A stretch of 64,000 bases of DNA from Dictyostelium discoideum (lineage: Eukaryota), in assembly GCA_000004695.1 (NCBI GenBank), contig CM000150.2, positions 960,001 to 1,024,000 of the forward strand, read 5' to 3'. Shown piece by piece: positions 62,895 to 63,978 of the stretch. Position numbers and translations under genes: made by a program. The first letter of the stretch is position 1. Each line of letters starts with the position of its first letter. Below the pieces are notes generated by a model. The model saw only the letters and a list, made by a program, of their open reading frames with translations. It searched no databases and had not been told where the DNA came from.

Positions 62895-63978
62895 ATGTTT
62901 TTAACAAGATCAGAATACGATAGAGGTGTAAATACTTTTTCACCAGAAGGTAGATTATTTCAAGTAGAATATGCTCTCGAAGCTATTAAACTTGGGTATG
63001 TTCATTGCAATTATTTATTTATTTTTTTTTTTATTTATTTTTTTCTTTGTCATACTAACCCAAATTCCTTTTATTTTTTCATTTATAAATATATAAACAA
63101 ATATATAAATATATTTATATTTAAATAGTTCTACAGCGTAGGTTTTTTTTTTAATTTTTTTTTTTTTTTTTTTTTTTCTCTCTCTTCTCTCCTTTAAATA
63201 TAATTAGGTATTAATAAATAATAATAATAAATAAATAATAAAGTATTGGTGTACAATGTGAAGAAGGTGTAGTTTTAGCAGTTGAAAAGCGTCTTACATC
63301 ACCACTTTTAGAACCATCATCAATTCAAAAAGTTGTTGAAATTGATTATCATTTAATTTGTGCACTCTCTGGTTTAGTTGCTGATGCCAGAACAATCATT
63401 GACCATGCTAGAATTGAAACTCAGGTAATTATCAATACATATATATATATATATATCAAATAAAAAAAAAAAAACATATATAATATTAACTAAAATTTTT
63501 TTTTTTTTTTTTTTTTAATATTTATTTTATATAGAATCATAGATTTAATTATAATGAACCAATGGGTGTTGAATCATGTGTACAATCAATTTGTGATTTA
63601 GCTTTAAGATTTGGTGAAAATAGAAACTCTGGAGAAGAAAGAATGAGTAGACCATTTGGTGTTGCATTATTAATTGCTGGTATTGATGAGAAAGGACCAT
63701 CATTATATTATTCAGATCCATCTGGTACATTTACACAATTTCATGCAAAAGCAATTGGTGCAGGTTCAGAAGGTGCACAAACTACATTACAAGAAAAATA
63801 CTCCAAAACTCTCACCATCGCTGAATGTCAAAAATTAGCACTCACAACCTTAAAACAAGTTATGGAAGAAGCTATCACCACCACTAATGTCGAACTTGCT
63901 GTAATCACCAAAGCAGATCAAAAGTTTAAAATTTATAACAAAGAAGAGTTAGCTACTGTCATTCAAACTTTAGAATAA
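62895..63978 (+). CDS. psmA5: 20S proteasome subunit alpha type-5; 4 exons including a 9-nt micro-exon
   Basis: Exons are 62895-62995 (donor GTATGT), 63129-63137 (TTCTACAGC, acceptor AAATAG, donor GTAGGT), 63244-63424 (donor GTAATT) and 63535-63978. The spliced N-terminus reads [53 protein letters not shown]. Human PSMA5 reads ...[27 protein letters not shown]. Without the micro-exon the conserved STA is missing. The remainder ([13 protein letters not shown]...[30 protein letters not shown]...) is highly conserved. Confidence 0.85.
63129..63137 (+). other. psmA5: 9-nt micro-exon of psmA5, encoding Ser-Thr-Ala in frame with split flanking codons
   Basis: The frame is gg|T TCT ACA GC|t. It is flanked by aaatAG and GTaggt. 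It is required to restore the conserved KLGSTAIG motif. Confidence 0.7.

Follow-up and report, generated by a model that had tools for sequence, protein, structure and literature searches.

A 9-nucleotide micro-exon very likely supplies a conserved Ser-Thr-Ala that the Dictyostelium discoideum reference proteasome alpha-5 protein lacks

Introduction

Spliceosomal micro-exons (shorter than about 30 nt) of animals, plants, and fungi are commonly missed by gene predictors. The Dictyostelium discoideum gene for proteasome subunit alpha-5, psmA5, raises the question of whether an exon of only 9 nt has been left out of the reference protein of this organism, taking with it three conserved residues, and if so, whether that exon is always included in the mature transcript. 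An original prediction, made from the DNA sequence, held that joining the first coding exon directly to the next large exon deletes a conserved Ser-Thr-Ala, and that a 9-nt segment lying between them puts it back. We followed up this proposal in a 64,000-nt stretch of contig CM000150.2 (hereafter the window; positions are numbered from its first nucleotide), using homologous proteins, orthologous loci from other species, and sequence collections.

Results

A four-exon gene model encodes a 244-residue proteasome alpha-5

The psmA5 exons were read directly from the sequence over positions 62500-64000 and then joined by script, which gave the following predicted gene model.

62895, + strand: psmA5 start codon ATG, from direct reading of the sequence
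62895..62995, + strand: exon 1, 101 nt, coding for M1 to L33 plus the GG of Gly34, with a phase 2 end
62996..63128, + strand: intron 1, 133 nt, 13% GC, donor GTATGT, acceptor aaatAG
63129..63137, + strand: micro-exon TTCTACAGC, 9 nt, preceded by aaatAG and followed by GTAGGT
63138..63243, + strand: intron 2, 106 nt, 13% GC, donor GTAGGT, T/CT-rich tract, acceptor ataaAG
63244..63424, + strand: exon 3, 181 nt, beginning T ATT GGT GTA CAA, coding for the third base of Ala37, then I38 to Q97
63425..63534, + strand: intron 3, 110 nt, 6% GC, phase 0 between Q97 and N98
63535..63978, + strand: exon 4, 444 nt including the TAA stop codon that ends at 63978
Inclusion junction: AAACTTGG-TTCTACAGC-TATTGGTG, read as ...AAACTTGG / TTCTACAGC / TATTGG...; skipping junction: AAACTTGG-TATTGGTG

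Exon 1 ends ...AAA CTT GG at 62995, followed by GTATGT, and the micro-exon contributes the third base of Gly34, Ser35 (TCT), Thr36 (ACA), and the first two bases of Ala37. With the micro-exon included (62995 joined to 63129, and 63137 to 63244), the coding sequence is 735 nt long and encodes 244 aa plus a stop codon; when it is left out (62995 joined to 63244), the frame stays intact and the product is 241 aa. The segment is directly flanked by canonical AG and GT and its length preserves the frame. Every coordinate given for the 9-nt segment, its AG acceptor, and its GTAGGT donor in the original prediction was exact to the base, and the assembled coding sequence bore out the central claim that the direct join removes Ser-Thr-Ala while the 9-nt exon restores the tripeptide exactly. 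Reading the locus in this way, we consider it very likely that the gene is psmA5 with four coding exons (101, 9, 181, and 444 nt), that the second is a constitutive spliceosomal micro-exon, and that the mature protein has 244 residues.

The product belongs with alpha-5, as had been proposed, and not with the other six alpha types. It aligned over its full length with the solved alpha-5 chains of spinach (3.8e-103), human (1e-99), and yeast (Pup2, ~3e-90). E-values for alpha-5 chains ranged from 1e-103 to 1e-82, compared with ~1e-46 to 1e-49 at best for other eukaryotic alpha types and ~5e-46 for alpha-7. Residues 8-30 match Pfam family PF10584 at 51.1 bits (cut-off 27.7). PF00227 is matched at 179.4 bits (profile positions 2-189) when the micro-exon is included; leaving it out lowers the score to 169.6 bits and confines the match to positions 8-189.

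The micro-exon encodes a conserved segment of the alpha-subunit core

The link from helix H0 to strand S1 carries a conserved G-S-T-A-[IV]-G segment, which the Dictyostelium protein has only if 63129-63137 is spliced in; the alignments to spinach, human, and yeast alpha-5 then run gap-free across GSTAIG. A [ST]-T-x tripeptide between ...KxG and [IVL]G was found in 117 of the 120 best homologues, in the form STA in 106 of them; the three sequences lacking it are gene models from D. discoideum AX4, D. purpureum, and D. dimigraforme. In an alignment of 113 sequences, Thr36 was invariant, and Ser35 and Ala37 were each at least 90% conserved. An AlphaFold2 model built from this alignment (mean pLDDT 79.9, pTM 0.80) has a helix over residues 17-32, with the first strand of the core following at 37-41, so that S35, T36, and A37 are predicted to span the short H0-S1 connection and the first residue of the strand. 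An earlier structure model from 21 sequences (mean pLDDT 64.8) was discarded as too poor. In 20S proteasome structures, the STA segment would correspond to the G-1/Thr1/Thr2 region of the beta subunits.

Human PSMA5 and yeast Pup2 both share the PF10584 and PF00227 domains with Dictyostelium alpha-5, and once the micro-exon is included, no difference from them remains at the protein level. With the micro-exon, the 38-residue N-terminus of the Dictyostelium protein differs hardly at all from its human counterpart.

The pattern is not a chance match

Searching the two strands of the 64-kb window for the pattern AG-N-TCN-ACN-GC-GT gave a single match, at 63127-63139; 100 dinucleotide-preserving shuffles gave none. 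Given the local intron composition (A 0.32, C 0.085, G 0.038, T 0.56), ~3e-7 matches are expected by chance in the 248-nt interval between the large exons. A chance origin of the pattern is excluded. Two in-frame AG..GT cassettes exist between the large exons, and only the micro-exon (GSTA) is open; the other, at 63142-63207 (66 nt), was rejected on account of a stop codon inside it.

The exon is conserved as coding sequence across Dictyostelium

The original prediction had pointed to other Dictyostelium species as a place to check the model, and the exon was present in all four that we compared (D. citrinum, D. dimigraforme, D. firmibasis, and D. purpureum). Orthologous genomic loci were fitted to exon structures by an exhaustive GT..AG search, and exon lengths of 101, 9, 181, and 444 nt (447 in D. 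purpureum) fit these four species as well as D. discoideum. Intron 1 lies at the same position and in the same phase in each of the four. Adding STA to the D. dimigraforme and D. purpureum genes leaves two normal-sized introns in both cases (121 and 254 nt, and 105 and 98 nt, respectively).

The micro-exon reads TTCTACAGC in four species and CTCAACCGC in D. purpureum, where the differences are three synonymous third bases (in the Gly, Ser, and Thr codons) with none at the six constrained positions; three random changes in nine sites would hit just the synonymous ones with a probability of 1/84. One D. discoideum strain carries TTCAACAGC, again a synonymous change, and all four micro-exon substitutions seen fall at synonymous third positions. 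In the five-species alignment, TAG-NTCNACNGC-GTAKGTT forms a conserved island within an interval whose mean column identity is 48%, and the flanking introns are largely unalignable. Purifying selection on the micro-exon as coding sequence is evident across the five species.

Repeats have accumulated in two of these introns. The D. firmibasis intron 1 contains ~60 ATT repeats (L007:1501-2000) and the D. dimigraforme intron 2 a long (CT)n tract (L006:1740-1870), with the micro-exon and its splice sites untouched in both.

Each flanking intron carries its own splicing signals

In all eight sequences examined, covering every strain and species, both introns carry their own GTA donor, WYTAAY motif, and AG acceptor. 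Two branch-point-like motifs were located in the window by motif match.

63053..63059, + strand: TACTAAC in intron 1, with the putative branch A 70 nt upstream of the micro-exon acceptor
63210..63215, + strand: ATTAAT in intron 2, with the putative branch A 29 nt upstream of the acceptor

The intron 1 motif is ACTAAC, ACTAAT, or ATTAAC in all strains and species examined; at 70 nt it looks rather far from the acceptor, which is our own judgement and not a comparison with a measured norm. In intron 2, the block AATTAGGTATTAATAAA is invariant in the five D. discoideum sequences, and the corresponding motif of D. firmibasis is ACTAAT, at 32 nt. Four species have GTAGGT as the intron 2 donor, the exception being D. 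purpureum with GTATGT. For D. discoideum, a branch consensus of ACTAAT/WCTAAY, which the intron 1 motif fits, and introns with a median length of 103 nt and 89% AT have been described (Irimia and Roy, PMC2483917), and by that measure introns of 133 and 106 nt are ordinary, while the merged 248-nt intron is more than twice the species median. If the micro-exon were never spliced in, there would be nothing for a conserved branch-like motif ahead of its acceptor to do.

These features suggest a mechanism in which each short AT-rich intron would be recognised and removed as an independent unit, by intron definition, with the branch-like motifs acting as candidate branch sites. The locus shows that an exon of 9 nt, with an intron of ~100 nt on either side, is probably spliced into mRNA in Dictyostelium. 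We also asked whether AGGT in intron 2 (63206-63209) could be another splice junction or a recursive site, and rejected this: the conserved core at that place is the TAYTAAT branch-like motif, and AGGT itself is not conserved in D. dimigraforme, D. firmibasis, or D. purpureum.

Reference and newer gene models differ by the micro-exon

Exact-sequence look-up identified the 241-aa form with the reference model of AX4 (EAL73722.1, XP_647379.1, UniProt Q55G04). Four newer D. discoideum assemblies (2025) supply the 244-aa form, as KAM9943950.1, KAM9962498.1, KAM9968628.1, and KAM9986484.1, all labelled 'hypothetical protein'. STA is also present in the models of D. firmibasis (RB653_007695), D. citrinum, and D. 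cf. discoideum. The D. purpureum model (242 aa) and the D. dimigraforme model (241 aa) are without STA, and both genomes (L005:1501-2563 and L006:1501-2725, respectively) contain the 9-nt exon with AG and GT flanks intact; both models should be corrected likewise, giving 245 and 244 aa, respectively. The expectation that gene finders miss such micro-exons thus holds at this gene, where the AX4, D. purpureum, and D. dimigraforme models all omit an exon that their genomes contain.

The sequence indicates that the 241-aa reference model is almost certainly an annotation error, in which one 248-nt intron was drawn across both introns and the micro-exon. In the collections searched, neither the AX4 reference nor the UniProt entry has been corrected. 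The corrected 244-aa protein is already in GenBank, and what is called for is an annotation fix that involves no new biology.

From species names and dates, we infer that the four newer assemblies are those of a study which describes wild Dictyostelium isolates (BioProject PRJNA1300491; PMC12745789). If their annotation was homology-driven, the four 244-aa models are not independent evidence. The main texts on D. firmibasis (PMC11193728) and on the new assemblies (PMC12745789) make no mention of the micro-exon.

Transcript-guided annotation of D. firmibasis includes the exon

The D. firmibasis genome was annotated with MAKER, using genome-guided Trinity mRNA-seq assemblies (1576x) and the D. 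discoideum UniProt proteome (PMC11193728). Because the resulting model contains STA and UniProt entry Q55G04 does not, its exon most likely came from transcript evidence, which lends indirect support to its inclusion in mature mRNA.

Variable-gap patterns for the two spliced junctions, D. discoideum-specific and then genus-degenerate, gave no matches in JGI metagenome and metatranscriptome contigs. By exact look-up, no Logan transcript contig held the 244-aa or the 241-aa protein; the 244-aa form was found in four NCBI genome contigs only and the 241-aa form in none. Literature on Dictyostelium micro-exons or psmA5 yielded nothing relevant beyond one Dictyostelium RNA-seq study in which the TopHat microexon search was switched on.

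Among the species compared, the bracketing introns are found only in Dictyostelium

Both phase 2 introns that bracket the micro-exon are present in 5/5 Dictyostelium species and were seen only in that genus; on present sequences they appear to be specific to it. Tieghemostelium lacteum (Raperosteliaceae), Heterostelium album, and Acytostelium subglobosum (both Acytosteliales; the taxonomy was looked up for H. album only) are intronless here, with the coding sequence ...TTGGG(T/A)(TCA ACA/AGT ACT)GC(G/T)AT... continuous. In Balamuthia mandrillaris and Rhizophagus irregularis, a phase 0 intron lies between K32 and L33, 5 nt upstream of Dictyostelium intron 1, and unlike in Dictyostelium there is no micro-exon. 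These two species have further intron positions in common (between M and S, in phase 2 within L, and between K and S), and the intron between Q97 and N98 is common to R. irregularis, T. lacteum, and Dictyostelium.

The origin is most simply explained by gain of both introns, or by an old intron shifting 5 nt and one further intron being gained. That the micro-exon is recent, arising when two phase 2 introns were gained 9 nt apart in the Dictyostelium stem (Dictyosteliaceae) and split a continuous exon of an essential housekeeping gene, is a scenario to which we give about an even chance. Alternatively, the ancient intron between K32 and L33 may have moved 5 nt, with one gain, or both introns may have been lost in parallel in other dictyostelid lineages.

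Discussion

Two other readings of the locus have to be weighed against a constitutive micro-exon. The 9-nt segment might instead be a cassette that is sometimes skipped, with both 244-aa and 241-aa alpha-5 being made and the reference representing a real isoform. Because the frame survives skipping, a minor 241-aa isoform would escape nonsense-mediated decay; the outer donor at 62996 and the outer acceptor at 63243 would delimit a plausible 248-nt intron, and the skipped model came from three annotation efforts. However, those three models are the only exceptions to a tripeptide found in 117 of 120 homologues, and they are gene models and not sequenced proteins. Thr36 is invariant, the residues sit at the H0-S1 junction of the core fold, and their removal costs the first six positions of the Pfam profile. 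Nor does the sequence hint at regulation, as the conserved intronic islands are merely splice-signal-like motifs. We therefore regard regular production of both forms as improbable, while low-level skipping of the micro-exon as splicing noise is possible.

It could also be argued that the 241-aa reference is correct and that AG-TTCTACAGC-GT, which would then never be spliced in, arose by chance or is a decayed relic. The standing of the 241-aa sequence as the curated reference (EAL73722, XP_647379, Q55G04) speaks for this, but the chance expectation of ~3e-7 does not, and a relic would be expected to lose its codon positions, both splice sites, and the upstream branch-like motif. What is seen in the five species is synonymous-only change in the 9 nt while the introns around them diverge and expand by microsatellites, and the transcript-guided D. 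firmibasis model has the exon. This explanation is, in our view, scarcely credible.

A constitutively included exon, the reading we favour, resembles known micro-exons in being very short, frame-preserving, AG/GT-flanked, coding for conserved residues, and absent from automated or reference models. It differs from regulated, tissue-specific micro-exon cassettes in belonging to a housekeeping gene and probably being constitutive, and from animal, plant, and fungal micro-exons in sitting between two very short introns, where intron definition is likely. The psmA5 micro-exon is not a new type of element or mechanism.

The consequences are practical. The reference protein of a major model organism (Q55G04, XP_647379, EAL73722) is without three conserved core residues, which is a matter for curation; anyone aligning or modelling the Dictyostelium 20S proteasome starts out with a wrong sequence, and the 20-residue tryptic peptide of the micro-exon junction is missing from reference search databases. 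Homology-based annotation can spread the psmA5 error to new genomes. The locus also offers a clean, well-controlled test or benchmark for micro-exon-aware prediction in very AT-rich genomes.

Across the whole window (positions 1-64000), an ARAGORN scan for tRNA genes was empty, and no match to an Rfam family attained the gathering score. The upstream neighbour of psmA5 (60423-62453, + strand) is a single ORF of 676 aa rich in Asn/Ser runs; in other strains, its orthologues are tagged with the Pfam families F-box and LRR. Its annotated length differs among D. discoideum strains (646, 650, 676, and 735 aa), and an (AAT)n array inside it, at 62124-62252, may lie behind this variation. Between this ORF and psmA5, a (TTATT)n array of ~25 copies at 62523-62650, ~250-370 bp upstream of the psmA5 ATG, is followed by long A and T homopolymer runs, and the region is probably ordinary Dictyostelium intergenic sequence.
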